From NCBI RefSeq assembly GCF_015207395.1, contig NZ_JADEWX010000057.1:7235-31234 (forward strand): a stretch of 24,000 nt of DNA. Reading direction: 5' to 3'. This document shows, piece by piece, positions 2,256 to 20,282 of this stretch. Numbering within the stretch: position 1 is the first letter of the stretch; every line of letters begins with the position of its first letter. Below the pieces are notes generated by a model that made no database searches, was not told where the DNA came from, and was given only the letters and a program-made list of their open reading frames with translations. The position numbers and the translations under genes were made by a program. The DNA is from Nodosilinea sp. LEGE 07088 (lineage in GTDB: Bacteria; Cyanobacteriota; Cyanobacteriia; Phormidesmidales; Phormidesmidaceae).

Positions 2256-3068
2256 TTAACTGTGCCAAAATTGGCGAAAGTCTTCGTCCTGGTCGCTGAG
2301 CTGAGCCCAGGGGGCACCCCACTGGCGCACAATCTCCGCCAGCCTCGCGCAGGCGGGCCGCTCGGTGGCGTAGTGGCCCGCGTCGATCAGTACCAGGTTG
2401 CGATCGCGCCCTTCCTGAAACTGATGAAACTTGCAGTCGGAGGTCAGGTAGGCCTGGGCTCCGGTCTGGGCCACGGCCCCCATAAAGCTAGCGCCGCTGC
2501 CGCCCAGCACCGCCACTCGACTAATGGTTTGGGCCAGGTCAGCGGCGGGGGAATAGATCAGGTTGGGCGGCGAGAGCTTGGTCTGAATTAAATTCAGCAA
2601 ATCCTGCAAACTCAGGGCAGGGCTGAGATCGCCTACCCGCCCGTAGCCAATGTCGAGTTGGGTGGGCACCACGGGTTCAGGGTTTTGCAATTGCAGCACC
2701 TGGGCCAGCAGGTCGGCAGTGCCATCCTGCACCTGGTCGAAGTTGGTGTGGGCGGTGTAGATGCCGATGCTGTGGGCGATCGCCTGGCACACCATATCCC
2801 CCACCGGGTCGCCCGCCACCACAGTCTTGAGCGGGCTAAAGATCAGCGGATGGTGGGCCAAAATCAGGTTTACGTTCACCCCCTGCTGCCGCAGCGCCAG
2901 CGCCTCAGCCATCACAGCCAGGGTAGGGGTCAGACACACCAGCACATGGGCGGGTTGTTCCAGCACCCCCGGCTGTACCTGCCAGCCGCAGTTGTCCCAG
3001 CTTTCTTGCCAGGTGGGGTTGGCCCAGGCTTCGAGTTTAGAGATCAGATCGGCGATCGCAAGTGCCAT
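2256..3068 (-). CDS. NIF3-family (YbgI-like) dinuclear metal-centre protein
   Basis: WDNCGWQV near the N-terminus, LILAHHPLIF, YTAHTNFD, and C-terminal DAGHYATE. About 270 aa, typical of the family. Confidence 0.8.
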   Translation of the reverse strand: MALAIADLISKLEAWANPTWQESWDNCGWQVQPGVLEQPAHVLVCLTPTLAVMAEALALRQQGVNVNLILAHHPLIFSPLKTVVAGDPVGDMVCQAIAHSIGIYTAHTNFDQVQDGTADLLAQVLQLQNPEPVVPTQLDIGYGRVGDLSPALSLQDLLNLIQTKLSPPNLIYSPAADLAQTISRVAVLGGSGASFMGAVAQTGAQAYLTSDCKFHQFQEGRDRNLVLIDAGHYATERPACARLAEIVRQWGAPWAQLSDQDEDFRQFWHS

Positions 3069-3757: not shown

Positions 3758-5662
3758 CTAGCCAGCCTTCACCAAAAACTTCTCAGGAATCTCGGTGTAC
3801 TGCCTCACAATTTGCCGAAACTCATCGCCGTCGATGGTTTCGCGCTCCAGCAGGGCATCCACCAGGTTATCCATTAGGGTGCGGTGCTGGCGCAGCATGG
3901 TGCGGGCGCGGTTGAGGCACGAGAGGGCAATGCCACGCACCTGGGCATCGATCTTGCCGGCCATTTCCTCCGAGACCTCGTTGCGGGGCATCAGGTTGCG
4001 GCCCAAAAATACCTGGTTATCCATGCTTTCGAGGGCCAGGGGGCCAAGCTCAGACATGCCGTAGAGGGTCACCATCTGGCGGGCCAGGTTGCTCACCTGC
4101 TGAATGTCGCCGCTGGCCCCGGTCGAGGTTTCGTCGTCGCCAAACACCTCGGCCTCGGCGGCAAAGCCCCCCAAAGCCACGGTAATGCGATCCATCAGCC
4201 AGTTGCGGGTGTAAAGGCCGCTGTCGATGATGTCTTCGTTGGGCAGCGATTGGGTAAAGCCTTCGATGCCGCCCGATCGCGGAATAATGGTGACTTTATT
4301 CAGCTCGTCGGAGTGGGTAAGCAGTGTGGTCAACAGCGCGTGGCCGACCTCGTGGTAAGCGGTCATGCGTTTGCGGCTGCTGTCGAGCAGGGGAGTGAGG
4401 CTGAGGCCGATGGTAACGCGATCGATCGCGTCTTCGATCTCAACCATACCCATGGCCTCTTTGCGGCGGCGGGCGGTGAGAATAGCGGCCTCGTTCAGCA
4501 GGTTGGCCAGCTCGGCTCCAGAGAACCCCGGCGTGCGGCGGGCGACGGCTTCCAGCGACACCTCAGCCTCGATTTTTTTGTCGCGGGCATGCACTTCTAA
4601 AATCGATAACCGCCCCTTGTAGGTCGGCAGGTCAACCACCACCTGGCGGTCAAAGCGGCCCGGACGCAGCAGGGCCAGATCGAGCACATCCACCCGGTTA
4701 GTGGCCGCGATTACAATAATGCCGCTGTTGCCCTCAAACCCATCCATCTCGGTGAGCAACTGGTTGAGGGTTTGCTCCCGCTCATCGTTGCCGCCGCCGA
4801 TGCCGGTACCCCGCTGACGACCTACGGCGTCAATTTCATCGATAAAGACAATACAGGGGGCATTTTCTTTGGCTTTGCGAAACAGGTCGCGCACCCGCGA
4901 CGCGCCCACGCCCACAAACATTTCGACAAATTCAGACCCCGAGATGCTGAAAAAGGGCACGGCGGCTTCGCCTGCGATCGCCTTGGCCAGCAGGGTTTTC
5001 CCCGTCCCCGGTTGGCCAATCAGCAGTACACCTTTGGGAATGCGCGCCCCAATGGCGGTAAATTTCTCTGGGCTTTTGAGGAAAGACACCACCTCTTGGA
5101 GTTCTTCCTTGGCCTCTTCGATACCGGCCACATCGTCAAATACGACGCCGGTTTTGGCCTCCATTTGAAAGCGGGCCTTAGACTTGCCAAAGCTCATGGC
5201 GTTGCCGGCCCCAGAGGCCGATCGCCGCAGCAGCATGAGCAGACCAAAGATGAGAATCAGCGCCAGTAGGGAATTCGTCGCCAGCCAGGCCAGCGCGCCA
5301 CTTCCCGACGAATCGCGAATGTCTACGTCTACGTCGTTGGCGGTCAGGGTGCGAATCAGTTCGGCATTGCCACCCTCAGCGAATAGCATCACCTCCTGGG
5401 GCGGGGCATCTTCGGCAGCACCATCGAGCTGCACGTAGGCAATTCCCCGAGCTTCATCGATTTCAACCGACTCGACCTCGCCTTGCTCAACCTTCTGCAA
5501 AAACTGACCGTAGGTCAACTCATCAGACTCGGCTTGGGCCAGGGCAGGGGGGAGGGGCATTAGGCTCTGCAACAGAAACCAGCCAATGGTCATCAATCCT
5601 GTGGCGGTTGCGCCCGCAGCAGGACGCAGCGAAGATTGCTTACCAGAAAAACGTAGGGTCAT
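3758..5662 (-). CDS. ftsH: ATP-dependent zinc metalloprotease FtsH (divergent paralog)
   Basis: Two N-terminal TM segments, Walker [14 protein letters not shown], Walker [11 protein letters not shown], second region of homology [20 protein letters not shown], and zinc site HEVGHAL. Confidence 0.93.
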
Positions 5663-5846: not shown

Positions 5847-5882
5847 CTAGGTCGGGGCAAATCACTGTTCGCGCCGACCTAG
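5847..5882 (-). terminator. Stem-loop terminator candidate downstream of psbA3
   Basis: CTAGGTCGG (5847-5855) pairs with CCGACCTAG (5874-5882), a 9-bp stem. On the minus-strand transcript it is followed by CTTTTGG. It starts 25 nt after the psbA3 stop. Confidence 0.5.
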
Positions 5883-5907: not shown

Positions 5908-6987
5908 TTAGCTCTGAATTGTCGGGGCCAGATAGGCAACCGGAGTAGCTGGGCCGTTGGCTAAATCGAGGGGAAAGTTATGGGCATTGCGTTCATGCAT
6001 GACCTCAAAGCCCAGATTGGCTCGGTTGATCACGTCAGCCCAGCTGGGCAGCACTCGACCCTGGGAATCTAAAATCGAGTGGTTAAAGTTAAATCCATTT
6101 AGGTTAAAGGCCATGGTGCTAATGCCCAGGGCAACAAACCAAATACAGACTACGGGCCAGGCCGCCAGAAAAAAGTGCAGCCAGCGAGAGTTGTTGAAGC
6201 TAGCGTACTGAAAAATTAGGCGGCCAAAGTAGCCGTGAGCCGCAACAATATTGTAGGTTTCTTCCTCTTGGCCGAACTTGTAGCCGGAGTTTTGAGATTC
6301 ATTGTCGGTGGTTTCTCGAATCAGGCTTGAGGTCACTAAAGACCCATGCATGGCAGAAAACAGAGAACCTCCCAGAACTCCTGCGACCCCCAGCATGTGA
6401 AAGGGATGCATCAAGATATTGTGCTCCGCCTGAAACACAAACATAAAGTTGAACGTGCCGCTAATCCCCATGGGCAATCCATCGGAAAAGCTACCCTGAC
6501 CGATGGGGTAAATCAAAAATACCGAGGTGGTAGCCGCAACGGGGGCACTGTAGGCCACGCAAATCCAGGGGCGCATGCCCAGGCGGTAGCTCAGTTCCCA
6601 CTCTCGGCCCAGATAGCAGAGCAGGGCTGGAATGTAGTGGAAGGCAATCATTTGATAGGGGCCACCGTTGTAGAGCCATTCATCTAGGGTGGCGGCCTCC
6701 CAGATCGGGTAAAAGTGCAGCCCAATGGCGTTAGATGACGGCACCACAGCAGCGGTAATAATGTTGTTGCCGTACAGCAGTGAACCCGACAGGGGCTCGC
6801 GAATGCCGTCGATGTCTACCGGAGGAGCAGCAATAAAGGCGGTGACAAAAACCACCGTTGAAACGCCTAGTAAAGGAATCATCAGCACGCCAAACCAGCC
6901 AATATAAAGCCGATTTTCAATGCTAGTGATCCACTGGCAGAACTGCTCCCAGGTACTGTTGTCCTGGCGTTGGAGAGTTGTAGTCAT
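5908..6987 (-). CDS. psbA3: Photosystem II D1 protein, far-red (FaRLiP) paralog
   Basis: Full-length D1 (MTTTLQRQ...). It retains the Mn4Ca ligand positions: FSDGLPMG (D170), [12 protein letters not shown] (E189/H190) and [15 protein letters not shown] (H332/E333/H337/D342/A344), plus a C-terminal extension. It is embedded in the FaRLiP array. Confidence 0.93.
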
Positions 6988-7018
6988 AGGTTATAAATGT
7001 GAAATTCGACTCGGTAAC

Positions 7019-7050
7019 ATTGAAGCAAAAGAATATGAAGAACCTGGGAA
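7019..7050 (-). promoter_or_regulatory. Candidate psbA3 promoter: TTCCC-N6-TTCAT, 10-nt spacer, then TTCAAT (gene-sense)
   Basis: The plus strand reads ATTGAA(7019-7024)-N10-ATGAAGAACCTGGGAA(7035-7050). It shares the 11-mer AGGTTCTTCAT with the chlF and apcD5 elements in the same gene-relative orientation. It lies between the hairpin at 7073-7101 and the psbA3 ATG (6987). Confidence 0.45.
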
Positions 7051-7072
7051 AATTCGCCGGTCAGATACAAAT

Positions 7073-7101
7073 GTAGGGGCTTTGCAGTGCAAAGCCCCTA
7101 C
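7073..7101 (-). terminator. Perfect GC-rich palindrome (hairpin) between the 48-codon ORF and psbA3
   Basis: GTAGGGGCTTTGCA-G-TGCAAAGCCCCTAC, a 14-bp stem. A partial third arm, TGCAAAGCCCCTA, follows at 7111-7123. Confidence 0.5.
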
Positions 7102-7130
7102 AACCGGCACTGCAAAGCCCCTATGGTGTT

Positions 7131-7277
7131 CTAGCTGCGATCGCTGGGGTAGGTTCTATACCCGTACCAAATAAAGGCAATGCAGCCCAGGGCAAATACC
7201 AGCAGGCTCAGAAAAATGCCGCTGGCGGTGGCAGAGATTTGGCCTTCACCGTAGGCGAGATAAAAGAGTGGCAGCAT
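7131..7277 (-). CDS. Unlisted 48-aa single-TM protein, a candidate small PSII-associated subunit
   Basis: Hand translation gives MLPLFYLAYGEGQISATASGIFLSLLVFALGCIAFIWYGYRTYPSDRS, with stop TAG at 7131-7133. GAGG lies 6-9 nt upstream of the ATG (7275-7277). It is on the same strand, 60 nt after psbH2 and before psbA3. It is below the ORF-track length cut-off. Confidence 0.5.
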   Translation of the reverse strand: MLPLFYLAYGEGQISATASGIFLSLLVFALGCIAFIWYGYRTYPSDRS

Positions 7278-7337
7278 AGGATTACCTCATTAGATTTTTG
7301 GGTACGCTATTTGCCCGCAGAATTTGCATACAGATGC

Positions 7338-7556
7338 CTAAAATCCTGAAGGCTGATAGGTGTTCGCCCCATCGAGCACAATGGTGCCGTTGTAAAGCTG
7401 CAAAATAATCAGCAGAAACAAAAACAGCATGGCGATCATAAAAACCATAAATGGAGTGGTGCCCCAGCCTGGGGCAACCCGTCCAGCTTCAGCGTTAAAC
7501 CGCCGGAGAAAATACTGGATTGGGGCTACTTTTTTAGGAACAAATTTTTGTTGCAT
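7338..7556 (-). CDS. psbH2: Photosystem II reaction centre protein H, far-red paralog
   Basis: The PsbH core motif VAPGWGTTPFMVFMIAMLFLFLLIILQLYN matches the canonical GWGTTP...FLLIILQIYN. Its position after psbB2 is typical of FaRLiP clusters. Confidence 0.88.
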   Translation of the reverse strand: MQQKFVPKKVAPIQYFLRRFNAEAGRVAPGWGTTPFMVFMIAMLFLFLLIILQLYNGTIVLDGANTYQPSGF

Positions 7557-7605
7557 GGCTCAGGTTTGGTTGGGGGTCAGTCGTCAAAAAGAGTATCCCC
7601 GATTC

Positions 7606-7633
7606 GTAGGGGCATAGCATGCTATGCCCCTAC
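7606..7633 (-). terminator. Perfect 28-nt palindrome between psbB2 and psbH2
   Basis: GTAGGGGCATAGCA|TGCTATGCCCCTAC. It has the same outer arms (GTAGGGGC...GCCCCTAC) as the hairpin at 7073-7101. Confidence 0.5.
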
Positions 7634-7730
7634 GGGGTTCCTAATCGTGAATTGGGGTTTCCACAATCGGATTTCGTATGACTCAGTTGAGAACCTCTAC
7701 AGGTGATCTGATATCAGGCATGACGCAGGC

Positions 7731-9266
7731 TCAAATGGTGGTTTGAGTTTGACGTGTGGTCGTATCGCCCACCTTTTGGAAGTAGCCCCATTCCACCTGC
7801 TCAATGTCTAGATCGGGGTCAACGCCCGAGAATACATCCTGGAAGATGGCGCGGAGGCCGTGCCAGATGTGACCAAAGAACCAGACCAGTGCAAAGCAGG
7901 CGTGGAAGAAGGCGAAGAAGCCCCGGTTGCTGGTTCTAAAGGCCCCGTCAGAGTTGTAAACCTCACGGTCAAAATCGAAGGGCTCTCCTAGCTGGGCCTT
8001 ACGGGCATACTGCTTAACCTGGGTGGGGTCGCTAAAGGTTTTGCCGTTGAGCAGCCCGCCCAAAAAGCTGACGGTAACGCCGGTTTGCTCGAAGCTGTAT
8101 TTAGAGTCCATGCGGCGGAAGGGAATGTCGGCTCGGATCAGGCCGTCTCTGTCGGTCAGCAGCACCGGGAAGTTCTCGAAGAAGTTGGGGATGCGACGCA
8201 CCGTTAGATCTCGACCTTCTTGATCTTTGAAGACGGGGTGGCCCAGCCAGCCGGTGGGTAAACCGTCGCCATCGACCATGCGTCCCACCCGGAACAGGCC
8301 GCCCTTGGCAGGGCTATTGCCGACGTAGTCGTAAAAGGCGAGCTTTTCGGGAATGGCGGCCCAGGCTTCGGGTAGGCTCTTACCAGCTCTTACCCCGGAC
8401 TGCACGCGGCGATCAATTTCTTTTTGAAAGTAAGCCTGATCCCACTGGTAGCGGGTTGGCCCCCACAGCTCGATCGGGGTGGTGGCGGTACCGTACCACA
8501 TGGTGCCAGTGGCAATGAACCCGGCGCAGAAAAAGACCGCCAGGCTACTGGCCAGCACCGATTCTATGTTGCCCATGCGCAGGCCCCGGAATAGATTTTC
8601 GGGGGGGCGCACGAAAATATGAAACAGGCCGCCGATAATGACGACGATGCCGAGGGCAATGTGGTGGGCCACGACGCCACCAGGGTTTTGGGGGTCAAAG
8701 CCCGCTGGGCCCCAGTCTGGGGCCACCCCCTGGACGTGGCCGGTGAGGCCAAAGGGGTCTGAAACCCACATGCCGGGGCCAAAGATGCCGGTCAGGTGGA
8801 AGGCCCCAAAGCCAAAGCAGAGCAGCCCGGCCAGCAAAAGATGAATACCAAAAACCTTGGGTAAATCGATCACGGGCTCGTCGGTCTTGGGGTCGAAGAA
8901 GGTGGCGACATCCCAATACACCCAGTGCCAGCAGGCGGCTAAAAACTCTAGGCCTGCGAAGACAATATGGGCGGCGGCGACCATCTCAAAGGTCCAAAAC
9001 CCGGGGTCGGCAAAGGTGTCGCCGGTAATGCTCCAGCCCTGCCAGGAGTTGGTTACCCCCAAGCGGGCGACAAAGGGCATCAGAAAGCAGCCCTGCCGCC
9101 ACATGGGGTTGAGCACCGGGTTGGTGGGGTCGTAGCGAGCGAGCTCAAACAACAGCATTGAGCCGGCAAACCCGGCACAGAGGGCGTTGTGCATGAGGTG
9201 TACCGCTATAAGCCGCCCTGGGTCGTTGATGACCGAGGTGTGAACGCGATACCAGGGAAGTCCCAT
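7731..9266 (-). CDS. psbB2: Photosystem II CP47 chlorophyll apoprotein, far-red paralog
   Basis: [10 protein letters not shown]... start and full-length CP47 (511 aa) with the large lumenal loop. Cluster context. Confidence 0.93.
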
Positions 9267-9429
9267 GGCGTTGTTCTCCTTGTTAATAGACAGAAGGCAG
9301 AAGAGGCGGAGGCGGAAGATAGGCTTGTAGCGTGGGTCAGGCTCCCTAGAGATCAGGCGATCGCCCCAGAGAGAAAAAGCGGGTAAACCTACGAGGACAG
9401 CCAGCCAGATTCACCCGCGATCGCTATAC

Positions 9430-10893
9430 CTATCGTTCGCTGGGGTCGATGGGCGGCATGGAGAGCACCGGCTCGTTTTTGCGATCGATGCCGACAATGA
9501 ACCCCGCCGCCGTCGCCCGCGCCAGCCCGGCGTGCCACCAGTGCCCCACTAAGAAGAAGAAGGCGAAGATAAAGTGGGCCGAGGCCAGCCAGGTGCGCGG
9601 CGAAACGTAGTTAAACGCGTTGGTTTCCGTCGCCAGACCGGCCACCGAGTTGATCGAGCCCAGGGGGGCGTGGGTCATGTATTCTGAGGCGCGGCGCACC
9701 TGCCAGGGCTGGACGTCGTTTCTGAGTTTATTTAGGTCTAGGCCGTTGGTGCCGCGCAGGGGTTCTAGCCAGGGAGCCTTGGCATCCCAAAAGCGCATGG
9801 TTTCGCCGCCAAAGATAATTTCTCCACTGGGCGATCGCTGTAGATACTTACCCAACCCGGTCGGCCCCTGGGCCGACGCGATGTCGGCCCCCAAGCCCTG
9901 GTCGCGCACCAAAAACACCAGCGACTGCGCCTGGGATGCCTCGGGAATCGTCGGGCCGTAGAACTCGCTGGGGTAAACCGTATTGTTAAACCAGATGAAC
10001 GCCGTGGCGATAAAGGCCTGCCCGGCAATGTTGCCCAGGCTCTGGGCCAGATAGGTTTCCCCACTCCAGGGGTAGAGGTTGTGGGTCCAGCGCAGGGGCG
10101 GTACCAAAATGTGCCAAATGCCGCCGATCACCAGCAGCGAGCCGATCCAAATGTGGCCGCCGATCACGTCTTCTAAATTGTCGACGCCGATAATCCAGCC
10201 GCTGCCGCCGTAGGGGCTATGAAACAGGTAGCCAAAAATAATCCGGGGGTCGAGGGTGGGGTTGGTGATCAGCCGCACGTCGCCGCCGCCCGGAGCCCAG
10301 GGGTCGTACAGGCCGCCCCAGAACATGGCTTTGCAGACAAACAGCAGGGCAAAAATGCCCAGAACACCGATGTGGAAGCCCAAAATTTGGGCCACCTTGG
10401 CGCGATCGCCCCAGTCAAAGTCAAAATAGCCCGAGAGCTTTTCTGGCCCGCGCAGGGCGTGGTAGAGGCCGCCAAAGCCCAAAATCGCCGAGCCAATCAG
10501 GTGAATGACCCCGATGGCAAAGAACGGGAAAATGTCGATGATTTCGCCGCCGTGGCCGACGCCAAAGCCCAGGGTGGCAATGTGGGGCATGAGAATGCAG
10601 CCCTGCTCGTACATGGGCTGGGCCGGGTTGTAGTGGCTCACCTCAAACAGCAGCATGCCCCCGGCCCAAAAGGCCAGTAGGGCCGCGTGGGCGATGTGGG
10701 CACCCAAAAAACGGCCAGTTAGATCGGTGGTGATCAGTCGAGCATTGCCTGCCCACCAGGCGTAGCCGCTGGATTCCTCGTCGTAGCCAGCTTTATTGGA
10801 GGTATTGCGATCCCCTTCGTTAACGAAGGGGGTGAGGGTGTTGAGCGAAATGTTGTCTAGTGAAGATGCGATCGGTTCTATGGGGGTTTCCAC
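9430..10893 (-). CDS. psbC2: Photosystem II CP43 chlorophyll apoprotein, far-red paralog (probable GTG start at 10893)
   Basis: [11 protein letters not shown]...[22 protein letters not shown] is the CP43 N-terminal signature. AAGGAG lies 11 nt upstream of the in-frame GTG at 10891-10893. The longer ORF to 10977 would begin inside a perfect palindrome. Confidence 0.88.
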
Positions 10894-12773: not shown

Positions 12774-12995
12774 GGATTTATGCAGAAAGTAAACAGGTGA
12801 AATCGTTGGCGTTTATATTCAGTTCCAATCCAGCGGGCTGAGCTTAGATTCTGTAAACCTGAATGCCGCCAAACCAGCCAATGGCAATGCGATAGCTGAA
12901 GATAGCCCGCAGCTTTTTGCGCCAGTGAAAGATAGCTGCCAATGGGTTTGGCCAAAGATTCAGGGGCCGGTTAGCCGCAGAGAGGTGGGTTCGGG

Positions 12996-16877: not shown

Positions 16878-17354
16878 TTAGGACAACGAGTGAATAATCA
16901 AATCAAAGTAAGGGGCGACTTCAGCGCCATCTTCTTCACTCATTAGAGACATGGCTTCCTCTTTGAGGCAGCGCATACACTCGGCAATATTCCGAATCGG
17001 AATTTCCAGGTTGTTGTACATTTCTTTAATGCCAACGGTGCCAATTTCTTCGAGGGGTCGCTCACTACCTGCCAAAATTGAATAGGCAATTAGTCGTACA
17101 TACCAGCCTTGATCGCGCTGACAGGAGGCTGTTTTACGCTCGTTGCCGCAGTTGCTGGGGGTGTTAGGACAGCGTTCCCAAAATCTGGCGCTGCCGTTTT
17201 GAACGATTCGCTGCTCGTTTTCGGCTAGGATTTTGGCGATGCGAATGCGCTGCTCTCCGGTTTTTACGAAATCTTGGTAGATGCGTATTTCCTTAGGAGC
17301 CGGATAACGAGCCTCACTATCTGCACTCAAGATTAGTTCTGTCACCAAACTCAT
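16878..17354 (-). CDS. apcD5: Far-red allophycocyanin alpha-type paralog, first gene of the minus-strand array
   Basis: MSLVTELILSADSEARYPAPKEI. The bilin Cys is retained (TASCQRDQGWYVRL). 158 aa. The paralog number is assigned from gene order. Confidence 0.85.
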   Translation of the reverse strand: MSLVTELILSADSEARYPAPKEIRIYQDFVKTGEQRIRIAKILAENEQRIVQNGSARFWERCPNTPSNCGNERKTASCQRDQGWYVRLIAYSILAGSERPLEEIGTVGIKEMYNNLEIPIRNIAECMRCLKEEAMSLMSEEDGAEVAPYFDLIIHSLS

Positions 17355-17428: not shown

Positions 17429-17482
17429 AGAATAAGCGATAAAAATGAAGAACCTATGAAGCATGAATTTTGCTTCAAGAAA
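17429..17482 (-). promoter_or_regulatory. Candidate apcD5-operon promoter: TTCAT-N6-TTCAT, 10-nt spacer, then TATTCT (gene-sense), plus conserved upstream flank
   Basis: The plus strand reads AGAATA(17429-17434)-N10-ATGAAGAACCTATGAA(17445-17460). 17441-17460 is a 20/20 reverse-complement match to 20251-20270 upstream of chlF, in the same orientation and at similar distance from the start codon. Confidence 0.55.
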
Positions 17483-17672: not shown

Positions 17673-17711
17673 TTCATACTGAGTACCGATAAGTAGCTGG
17701 GTTAATTCAAA

Positions 17712-17779
17712 TGTAGGATGGGTTAGCGATAGCGTAACCCATGCAGGTGTTGGGTTTCGTTCCTCAACCGCAACCTACA
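17712..17779. repeat. MITE-like small palindromic element with terminal inverted repeats
   Basis: TGTAGGATGGGTT...AACCGCAACCTACA termini (imperfect inverted repeat). The internal GGGTTAGCGATAGCGTAACCC and GTTGGGTTTCGTTCCTCAACC motifs resemble a repeat type I recall as widespread in cyanobacterial intergenic DNA. Confidence 0.45.
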
Positions 17780-17816: not shown

Positions 17817-17848
17817 TTCCCAGGAATTTCAGAGTTTAGTGCTTCAAT
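17817..17848 (+). promoter_or_regulatory. Candidate psbO promoter: TTCCC-N6-TTCAG, 10-nt spacer, then TTCAAT
   Basis: TTCCCAGGAATTTCAG(17817-17832)-N10-TTCAAT(17843-17848). An ungapped 38-nt alignment to the psbA3 upstream element gives about 26 matches by hand. It lies about 100 nt upstream of the psbO ATG. Confidence 0.4.
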
Positions 17849-17940
17849 CAATGATTGTCCTGGGTGTGGCCTAGGCGGCAGCGTCCTTCTCTGTTGTCCA
17901 GAAAGCCGCAGTAAACCCTATGCCAAAGAGGTCAATTTTT

Positions 17941-18783
17941 ATGCGCTATCGCACCTTGGTTGCTGTAGTTTTAGCCCTTTGCCTGGGGCTGATTACAGCG
18001 TGCAGCGGCAGCCCCCGAGCGGGAGATCAAGCTTTGAGCTATGACCAAATTAAAGGAAGCGGGTTGGCTAACCTATGCCCGCAAATTTCTGAAACCCGGC
18101 GAGATGCGATCGCCATTGCTCCTAATCAGTCCTACACCCTAGAGGAGATGTGTTTACAGCCCACCGCCTTCTTGGTTAAGCAGGAGCCGTTGGTCAAGCG
18201 CGCCAGCGCCAGCCAGGCCACCCAGTTTATGCCCACCAAGCCGCTGACCCGAGCTAGTTTTTCCATTGACCAGGTCAGTGGAGTATTAAAAGCCGATGCC
18301 GACGGTCGCCTGACCTTTATGGAACAAAGCGGCTTCGACTTTCAGCCGATTACGGTGCAACTCCCCGATGGCGAGCGCGTGCCGCTGCTCTTTTCTATCA
18401 AGGGGCTGGTGGCGCAAACGCTGGAAGCGGCCAAGAGCATCAACCCCTTAACCCAGTTCAGCGGCACCTTTCAGGTACCGGCCTACCGCACCGCAGGCTT
18501 TTTAGACCCCAAAGGGCGTGGGGTTATGGTGGGCTACGATGCCGCCGTAGGCTTACCCCCCCAGGCCGATAGTAAAGAGTTTCAGCGCTCGAATACAAAA
18601 GTCTTTGAGGTTGACGAAGGCACGTTGACCCTGCGGGTAGAGCGGGTAGACCAGGGTACCGGAGAAATCGCGGGGGTGTTTGAAAGCATTCAGCCCTCGG
18701 ATACCGACTTTGGCGCTAAAGATCCCATGGATGTCAAAATCCAGGGTGTTTTCTACGCCCGACTGAACTCAGAAATGGCCTAG
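17941..18783 (+). CDS. psbO: Photosystem II manganese-stabilising protein PsbO, cluster-encoded paralog with a lipobox-like signal peptide
   Basis: LSYDQIKGSGLANLCP...MCLQPTAFLVKQEP, DFQPITVQLPDGERVPLLFSIKGLVA, YRTAGFLDPKGRG and VKIQGVFYARL all match PsbO. The start is taken at ATG 17941 (AGAGG 9 nt upstream). The signal sequence ends LGLITAC. Confidence 0.88.
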   Translation: MRYRTLVAVVLALCLGLITACSGSPRAGDQALSYDQIKGSGLANLCPQISETRRDAIAIAPNQSYTLEEMCLQPTAFLVKQEPLVKRASASQATQFMPTKPLTRASFSIDQVSGVLKADADGRLTFMEQSGFDFQPITVQLPDGERVPLLFSIKGLVAQTLEAAKSINPLTQFSGTFQVPAYRTAGFLDPKGRGVMVGYDAAVGLPPQADSKEFQRSNTKVFEVDEGTLTLRVERVDQGTGEIAGVFESIQPSDTDFGAKDPMDVKIQGVFYARLNSEMA

Positions 18784-19217: not shown

Positions 19218-19246
19218 AAGGTGCTCAGGCATGGCCTGAGCACCTT
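19218..19246. terminator. Terminator hairpin between convergent psbF and psbV, possibly bidirectional
   Basis: AAGGTGCTCAGGC-ATG-GCCTGAGCACCTT, a 13-bp perfect stem. It is flanked by AAAAA on the left, which gives a U-tract for the minus-strand psbV transcript, and by GGTTTAT on the right. Confidence 0.75.
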
Positions 19247-19269: not shown

Positions 19270-19785
19270 TTAGCGTCCAGGCTTGCCGCTGGCCCAGATG
19301 CGACCAATAATATTGGGCTGGGCTAACACATAGCCAGAGATATCCGCTAAATCTTGATCGGTGAGCGTCTTCATTCTGGGGAATAAATCGACCCTGGCCG
19401 TGGAGGGATGAAGTTCTTCCAGTGACCCTAGGCCGTCGTAGGTGGTGGGATTTTTCAAGTAGTCAATAATTCCTTCTAAATTGTCGCGAGCAGGGAGTGC
19501 TAAGGCCAGAGTCTGTGGGGCCAGACTAATATCTGGATTGGGCTTAGTAATGCCGTCTAAATGGCAAGCAGAGCAGGTGCCGTTAAATTTCTTGCGACCG
19601 TTGGCAAGCTGTTGTTCGGTCAAGGTGATGACATCACCCGATGCGTTGAGCGGCACCGTGCGGGCCGACTCGCTGATTTCAATAGCGAGGGCGGCTTTAG
19701 TGGGTATTTGAAAAGCTATAACTATAGCTAGGCCAACTATCAGGAGGATTCTTCCTGGCATAAATTTTTCAAAAAATTGAGCCAT
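19270..19785 (-). CDS. psbV: Cytochrome c-550 (PsbV) paralog
   Basis: Signal peptide, heme motif CSACH, DNLEGIIDYLKNPTTYDG and ELHPS (distal His) match PsbV. AAGGA lies 7 nt upstream of the ATG at 19785. Confidence 0.85.
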   Translation of the reverse strand: MAQFFEKFMPGRILLIVGLAIVIAFQIPTKAALAIEISESARTVPLNASGDVITLTEQQLANGRKKFNGTCSACHLDGITKPNPDISLAPQTLALALPARDNLEGIIDYLKNPTTYDGLGSLEELHPSTARVDLFPRMKTLTDQDLADISGYVLAQPNIIGRIWASGKPGR

Positions 19786-19932
19786 TAAATTATCCTTAAA
19801 AGCGCTTCAGTAGGTTTGAAGCTACCATATTTCTATGTTTTTTATTCTGATTAAGTAGACTTAAAAAATATTTCTTTAGATGAAAATAAAGATTAATAAA
19901 ACCCTTGAATTCATCCATAATTTAGCGAAAGA

Positions 19933-19964
19933 TTCCCAAGAAATTCATCTTTTTGTGCTCTGTT
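19933..19964 (+). promoter_or_regulatory. Fifth copy of the half-site pair (TTCCC-N6-TTCAT) in the AT-rich psbV/chlF divergent region
   Basis: TTCCCAAGAAATTCAT (19933-19948) is followed by CTTTTTGTGC, then TCTGTT at the 10-nt offset, which is a weak -10. It lies about 400 nt upstream of the chlF ATG and about 150 nt upstream of psbV on the opposite strand. Confidence 0.3.
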
Positions 19965-20237
19965 CTGGAAGCGATCGCGCCAGCAGATTGGCGGGTACAT
20001 CCCATTTCTGTAAGTGTCTGCCTGATGGCCACAGGGGCAGGGATCCACGGTGCAGAGACTCGTTGGCTTAGGCAAACCCATCTCTATGTCTCCCCTATCT
20101 CTACCTCTCCTAGAAGGGAATGTTTACCCCGTTCTTTCACAGCTTGTCCTGAGCTAAATTTGGGGTGGAGGAAGTCCTTCATTTGCTTGGGCCAGAGAAC
20201 TTTCAACCCCTTAAATGGGCGTGTAACGTTCCTTAAA

Positions 20238-20282
20238 GCAGATTTTCACATTCATAGGTTCTTCATTTTTCTCTTCTAGGTT
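20238..20282 (+). promoter_or_regulatory. Candidate chlF promoter: TTCAT-N6-TTCAT, 10-nt spacer, then TAGGTT
   Basis: TTCATAGGTTCTTCAT(20251-20266)-N10-TAGGTT(20277-20282). 20251-20270 is identical to the reverse complement of 17441-17460. The flanking GCAGATTTTCACA resembles the apcD5 flank GCAAAATTCATGC. Confidence 0.55.

Follow-up and report, generated by a model that had tools for sequence, protein, structure and literature searches.

A conserved short-type FaRLiP motif as the probable core promoter of psbA3

The stretch of DNA that we analysed (24 kb, hereafter the window) carries a far-red light photoacclimation (FaRLiP) cluster. On the minus strand the genes follow the order apcD5 (16878-17354), apcB2, two further apc genes, apcE2, psbD3, psbC2, psbB2, psbH2 (7338-7556), an ORF of 48 aa and psbA3. 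The last of these (5908..6987, minus strand) encodes a far-red D1 of 359 aa that is set apart from standard D1 by DGLPMG and further far-red-specific signatures, and the closest PsbA3 sequences, at 94-95% identity, come from Nodosilineales (Nodosilinea sp. LEGE 07298 and a Leptolyngbyaceae MAG). The 48-aa ORF, orf48 (7134-7277, minus strand), is hydrophobic, lies directly after psbH2 and has no Pfam match; some 30 related loci have it beside psbH2, with 51-81% identity, and it is probably the gene named psbH2' in the available text of a recent preprint (Antonaru et al., 2024). A psbO paralogue (17920-18783) and chlF (ATG at about 20353), followed by psaA2, are encoded on the plus strand, and a psbV paralogue (19270-19785) on the minus strand. 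An FtsH protease gene (3758-5662) with AAA and Peptidase_M41 domains follows psbA3 on the same strand after about 250 nt. FtsH is a D1-degrading protease, which makes its adjacency to psbA3 suggestive; related loci, whose flanks extend some 1-2.3 kb past psbA3, show no FtsH gene there.

Hairpins are found on both sides of psbA3. Upstream, after orf48, is a perfect, terminator-like hairpin (7072..7102, minus strand). Its stem of 14 bp, 8 of them GC pairs, is closed by a loop of 3 nt and followed by the tail TTTGTATCTG; the fold z-score is -4.9. No other terminator-like site between window positions 3000 and 22000 is as strong, and the perfect hairpin noted earlier just upstream of the psbA3 element is real. 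Downstream, just past the psbA3 stop codon, a hairpin followed by CUUUUGG (5847..5882, minus strand; z = -2.6) is likely a terminator. Being flanked in this way, psbA3 looks like an insulated monocistronic unit in this genome. The sole site in the region comparable to the upstream hairpin is a strong terminator-like one right after the psbV paralogue (19218-19246, minus strand; 13 bp, tail TTTGTTGG).

The arm of the upstream hairpin, TAGGGGCTTTGCA, occurs three times within 7074-7123, the third copy being a direct one at 7111-7123. A related palindrome, GTAGGGGCATAGCATGCTATGCCCCTAC, sits at 7605-7634 inside the operon, between psbB2 and psbH2, where it has no T-tail; the palindromes at 7605-7634 and 7072-7123 have the outer arms GTAGGGGC...GCCCCTAC in common. 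Comparison with related loci (given L numbers here) showed that the hairpin at the orf48-psbA3 junction is not conserved in the relatives L031 and L038, which have the same tandem arrangement, and that L027, L034, L032, L039 and L044 carry unrelated hairpins or inserted palindromic elements at this junction. The shared arms and the varying insertions in relatives suggest that these hairpins belong to a small family of palindromic repeats, one member of which happens to have a terminator-like tail. As judged from the aligned loci, the upstream hairpin is lineage-specific and lies outside the conserved promoter design. By eye, we also noticed a long palindrome (GTAGGTTG...CAACC(C/T)AC-type, at about 17700-17770, minus strand) in the apcD5-psbO spacer. 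It looks like the insertions at the orf48-psbA3 junction of L032 and L044, and all of these may be copies of a mobile miniature repeat common to these genomes.

Between the upstream hairpin and psbA3, the minus strand at 7050-7019 reads TTCCCAGGTTCTTCATATTCTTTTGCTTCAAT, which parses as TTCCC-AGGTTC-TTCAT-ATTCTTTTGC-TTCAAT. The original prediction had described TTCCC, an 11-nt offset, a 10-nt spacer and TTCAAT at this place, and both the sequence and the coordinates proved exact. The element lies on the same strand as psbA3, with the end of its hexamer 31 nt 5' of the ATG at 6987, well inside the roughly 440 bp before the leading gene of a FaRLiP transcription unit in which motifs of this family are expected. 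Counting from a start predicted from the hexamer position (near 7012 +/- 2), which would give a short 5' leader of about 25 nt (6988..7012), the upstream half-site TTCCC (7046..7050) falls at about -38 to -34 and is degenerate relative to the family consensus TTCAT. The downstream half-site TTCAT (7035..7039; about -27 to -23) follows 11 nt after it. The T-rich 10-nt spacer ATTCTTTTGC (7025..7034) covers -22 to -13, and the -10-like hexamer TTCAAT (7019..7024) covers -12 to -7. Within the spacer, a TG at 7027-7026 occupies -15/-14, one base before the hexamer, as in an extended -10 element. The two direct-repeat units, of 11 bp each and with the cores TTCCC and TTCAT, span about -40 to -19, in the place of a -35 box; the family consensus has a longer repeated unit, TCTTCATA, with the same 11-bp period. 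A scan of 6800-7700 around psbA3 for sigma-70 -35/-10 (TTGACA-type) consensus promoters found none, indicating that this is not a standard promoter.

Similar sites occur elsewhere in the window. The 11-mer AGGTTCTTCAT is present exactly three times, at 7035-7045 (minus strand), 17445-17455 (minus strand) and 20256-20266 (plus strand), each time in sense orientation, upstream of psbA3, apcD5 and chlF, respectively. Its expected count is 0.25 even when one mismatch is allowed, and none of 100 dinucleotide shuffles reached three copies even with that mismatch, which bears out the earlier claim that the chlF and apcD5 elements have this 11-mer in common with psbA3. The three sites align in register, with the same half-site offset, N10 spacer and T....T hexamer. 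Both sister sites have two intact half-sites, TTCAT-AGGTTC-TTCAT (TTCATAGGTTCTTCAT), followed by N10-TATTCT before apcD5 (17429..17460, minus strand) and by N10-TAGGTT before chlF (20251..20282, plus strand). At position 7042 the window has T (AGGTTC), a base that is A (AGGATC) in 90% or more of the orthologous psbA3 sites of Nodosilineales. Owing to this T, the psbA3 site matches the chlF and apcD5 sites of the window exactly over 11 nt, which might reflect homogenisation within the genome or co-adaptation to the resident RfpB.

We also scanned the window with a 40-nt position weight matrix (PWM) built solely from psbA3 upstream regions of other genomes, from which the false picks L043 and L082 had been left out. 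The psbA3 site scored 36.2 bits, the best of about 48,000 window positions, against a maximum of 10.9 bits across 200 shuffles. The other matches above the shuffle maximum are all intergenic and face a downstream FaRLiP gene: the apcD5 site (31.0 bits), the chlF site (23.4 bits), a site before psbO (18.0 bits) and an extra site before chlF (14.4 bits). Detection of the chlF and apcD5 sites by a foreign psbA3 matrix, together with the shared exact 11-mer and register, speaks for homology of the psbA3 element to the 3' region of the chlF motif. The psbO site (17817..17848, plus strand) is of the short type, reads TTCCCAGGAATTTCAG-AGTTTAGTGC-TTCAAT and is separated from the far-red psbO paralogue downstream of it by about 70 nt, in agreement with the psbO motif reported for group VI in the accessible parts of the preprint (Antonaru et al., 2024). 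The extra site, also short-type, reads TTCCCAAGAAATTCAT-CTTTTTGTGC-TCTGTT (19933-19964, within a match at 19929-19968, plus strand) and precedes the chlF ATG by about 390 nt and the chlF motif itself by about 290 nt. A search for a small gene downstream of it gave no convincing ORF, and it could be a second chlF promoter, the start of a non-coding RNA or a relic.

To place the element in a wider context, we gathered psbA3 loci without using the motif. A peptide search with a 24-aa alignment specific to far-red D1, limited to one genome per species, yielded 80 loci spanning Nodosilineales, Chroococcales, Nostocales, Oculatellales and others, and exact-protein look-up added nine, for a total of 89. 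A match of at least 15 bits was present within 1.5 kb upstream of psbA3, or of chlF-psbA3, in 84 of the 89. About 60 distinct upstream regions have the same layout, (C)TTCAT-N6-T[TC]CA[TGC]-N10-hexamer (T....T): the TTCAT-like cores are exactly 11 nt apart in these roughly 60 sites, and all sites examined have a spacer of 10 nt. The distance from the end of the hexamer to the ATG is 34-47 nt in Nodosilineales orthologues; most other lineages have a longer one, of 65 to about 390 nt. Across six related loci of 16-21 kb, matches above 12 bits lie nearly all just before FaRLiP genes (psbA3, chlF, apcD5 and a response-regulator gene), the exception being a weak match in L007 (21006) with no called gene downstream. 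In L003, a 20.9-bit match (9261-9300, plus strand) stands immediately before the gene for a single-domain response regulator (9333-9737), which itself precedes psbA3; this match is consistent with the rfpD motif as described in the available preprint text (Antonaru et al., 2024).

A MAFFT alignment of 35 Nodosilineales upstream regions contains a single invariant or near-invariant block, corresponding to 7050-7019. Flanks and leader vary freely around it, and there is no conservation upstream of 7050. Aligning psbA3 upstream regions from other FaRLiP strains, the comparison that the original prediction had proposed, returns the element itself, from its first base to its last, as the conserved block. 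In these 35 sequences the invariant positions are T7050 and C7048 of the upstream half-site, T7039 of the downstream half-site, T7032, T7028, T7027 and G7026 of the spacer, and T7024 and T7019 of the hexamer; C7037 and A7036 of the downstream half-site and A7021 and A7020 of the hexamer are at least 90% conserved. The TTCCC form of the upstream half-site recurs in the window's subclade (L027, L031, L034, L038, L044 and L037). In L037 and L043, whose sites were found by PWM, both half-sites are degenerate and the spacer and hexamer are retained. Such degeneracy, in the window as in L037 and L043, suggests that the true contacts of the activator may differ from the TTCAT reading.

The base at -11, an A in the canonical TATAAT, is normally the most important base of a -10 element. 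TTCAAT matches TATAAT at four of six positions and is missing this A. The Nodosilineales psbA3 hexamer is T[CT][TC]AAT, TCTAAT being the most common form in orthologues (23 of 60 distinct sites), and position -11, T in the window, is C, T or G in orthologues and never A. All 34 sites lacking A at -11 have TG at -15/-14, and none of the 26 canonical sites does. In lineages outside Nodosilineales the hexamer is TA...T, without TG. We considered treating TG and the -11 base as independently covarying (Fisher p about 1e-17) and rejected this, since the split follows a single clade boundary and so amounts to about one evolutionary event rather than statistical covariation. The psbO site of the window (TGcTTCAAT) and the site at 19933-19964 are of the same TG type as Nodosilineales psbA3. 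A register shifted by 2 (CAATGT/TAATAG) would regain A(-11) at the cost of the invariant T(-7) and of the TG, and is less likely.

We consider it likely, and hold this with good confidence, that a monocistronic psbA3 unit has its core promoter at 7050-7019, in the form of a short-type FaRLiP motif activated by RfpB. RfpB proteins encoded in related clusters (L003 and L006) contain a Trans_reg_C domain within the order Response_reg + Trans_reg_C + Hpt + Response_reg. The pho-box-like geometry of the element and the OmpR-type character of RfpB point, by analogy, to class II activation. Under far-red light, a phosphorylated dimer of RfpB, the predicted binder, would occupy 7050-7030 head-to-tail on the direct repeats and, acting in class II fashion, bring in RNA polymerase. 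The lack of a -35 box and of a canonical base at -11 would be offset by the extended -10. Transcription would begin near 7012 and leave a leader of about 25 nt. The hairpin at 7102-7072 would stop most transcripts of the upstream apcD5...psbH2-orf48 operon, and the second hairpin, at 5882-5847, would end the psbA3 message. With an insulated unit of this kind, D1, which turns over fast, could be supplied independently of the rest of the operon.

The element could instead be a real promoter core whose control does not lie, or does not lie solely, with RfpB acting on the TTCAT repeats, its conserved part being the T-rich spacer and extended -10. Expression would then be semi-constitutive or differently regulated, by another sigma factor or by RfpD, and would set D1 and PsbO supply apart from the chlF/apc type. 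The half-sites do drift (TTCCC, TTCCT, TCCAT, TTTAG) around an invariant TTTGnT..AAT, TG goes strictly with a non-A at -11, and the same short type also precedes psbO; the preprint, in the sections available, likewise sees short motifs as a separate, old branch and names RfpD as a possible binder (Antonaru et al., 2024). Yet T7050, C7048 and T7039 of the half-sites are still invariant in 35 sequences, the exact 11-mer is shared with chlF and apcD5 in this genome, psbA3 is reported within a far-red-induced cluster, and the TG/-11 association is confounded with phylogeny and may be essentially one event. On balance we regard control by something other than RfpB as improbable.

Gene order bears on whether the element belongs to psbA3 at all. 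In the window and its nearest relatives (L027, L031, L032, L034, L038, L039 and L044), psbA3 stands in tandem after psbH2-orf48, an arrangement in which the motif could be a decaying chlF/apc duplicate of little activity and psbA3 be transcribed mainly by read-through from the apcD5 promoter via psbH2-orf48. The degenerate first half-site would suit such decay, and the orf48-motif interval of L031 and L038 contains no hairpin, so that in some genomes part of the psbA3 transcripts may come from psbH2 by read-through. In most other Nodosilineales, however, psbA3 is inverted and converges on orf48/psbH2 (L004, L005, L010, L011, L017, L018 and L020 among them), and the motif still lies 34-47 nt before the ATG. 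In L001, psbA3 is isolated among non-FaRLiP genes, its upstream neighbour is on the opposite strand, and the only match above 12 bits in that locus lies before it. Read-through is impossible in these inverted and isolated cases, and the motif has been retained with psbA3 after inversion or translocation, which argues that it belongs to the gene. Where psbA3 lies directly behind chlF, the loci checked have no motif between the two genes, and most have it upstream of chlF instead. Conservation of the 32-nt block in 35 diverged genomes with flanks free to vary, and the presence of the region's strongest terminator-like hairpin directly upstream in the window, also run against decay, to which we assign a very low probability. 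The pattern of conservation and gene order is as expected of an autonomous promoter and is hard to reconcile with dependence on read-through; at the level of sequence comparison, it supports the earlier proposal that psbA3 has a promoter of its own.

Another option, a general psbA or high-light operator (for example for RpaB, through HLR1) in place of a FaRLiP-specific element, seems scarcely credible. Although psbA genes are commonly regulated by light intensity and HLR1 also consists of direct repeats, in the loci scanned the motif is common to chlF, apcD5 and psbO and not to general genes, the HLR1 pattern (G/T)TTACA(T/A)(T/A), repeated with a 2-nt gap, was not found near psbA3 even with three mismatches, and the sole HLR1-like match in the window, at 12812, is within chance expectation.

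The short psbA3 and psbO sites may have an extended -10 without A(-11), drifting half-sites and a very short leader as the joint features of a functionally distinct promoter class in the far-red regulon, a proposal that we make tentatively and think rather unlikely to hold. If true, D1 and PsbO would have induction kinetics, activator dependence or sigma use unlike those of the chlF, apc and psa promoters, and loss of A(-11) with gain of TG would be a compensatory change kept across Nodosilineales.

FaRLiP clusters are already described, in the preprint text available to us, as containing a family of conserved T-rich intergenic motifs with three forms, a chlF form of about 61 bp, a long form of about 59 bp and a short form of 33 bp that corresponds to the 3' region, located upstream of chlF, apc, psa, psbA3, rfpD and psbO (Antonaru et al., 2024; bioRxiv 10.1101/2024.05.15.594131). 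The same source states that psbA3 has its own promoter and proposes RfpB as the binder (section 9, Fig. S7), and it holds the short psbA3 and psbO motifs to be vertically inherited in group VI, that is, Nodosilineales. Our element and that short motif (section 9, Fig. 5, Fig. S7 J) agree in genes, lineage, length (32-33 bp), T-richness and homology to the 3' part of the chlF motif; compared by text, they differ in nothing essential. As far as the accessible parts of the preprint go, the element is thus an orthologue of an already described short FaRLiP motif class, and its prediction is correct but not new. The reading as repeats, 10-nt spacer and extended -10, and the association of TG with a non-A at -11, are not spelled out in the preprint text that we could consult. 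Our additions are modest: the base-level direct-repeat and extended -10 reading, the motif-blind conservation test and the lineage-specific hairpin.

On the experimental side, far-red induction from the region upstream of JSC-1 chlF has been shown in a host that has RfpABC (Liu et al., 2023; PMC10127269), and according to the same study the DNA motif of RfpB was still being sought. Nine candidate fragments, one of them from upstream of psbA3 in Synechococcus PCC 7335, gave no far-red induction in the heterologous host C. fritschii 9212, which the authors ascribe to RfpB specificity or to weak promoters (PMC10127269). A literature search turned up neither mapped transcription start sites for FaRLiP clusters nor experiments on RfpB binding. 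The anatomy given here pinpoints the parts to mutate (7050-7046, 7039-7035, TG at 7027-7026 and the hexamer at 7024-7019), and such mutants would bear on the DNA target of RfpB. An independent promoter would allow the fast-turnover far-red D1 to be re-supplied without re-expressing the whole apc-psb operon, and the element could aid the design of compact far-red-inducible promoters for synthetic biology.

Among known systems, the pho box bound by PhoB in E. coli consists of two 11-bp direct repeats with a conserved core of about 7 bp, which take the place of the -35 box and stop 10 bp short of the -10 element. The psbA3 element is like such promoters in repeat geometry, in replacement of the -35 box and in having a winged-helix response regulator as its predicted activator. 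The cores compare as CTGTCAT in the pho box and (T)CTTCAT in FaRLiP. RfpB, whose binding is predicted by this analogy, differs from PhoB in having two receiver domains and an HPt domain, and the psbA3/psbO type differs from pho-box promoters by its extended -10. The RcaC L-box of complementary chromatic acclimation offers a second parallel, in which a light-colour cascade headed by a phytochrome-class kinase acts through a multi-domain OmpR-type regulator on direct repeats upstream of antenna operons. The cascade and the direct-repeat logic are alike, whereas the repeat sequence and the light colours differ, and we take this likeness as a lead only. Extended -10 (TGn) promoters, finally, resemble the psbA3 element in having TG exactly at -15/-14 and no -35 box, but the psbA3 hexamer is without A(-11), so that dependence on an activator, and not self-sufficiency, is to be expected of it.
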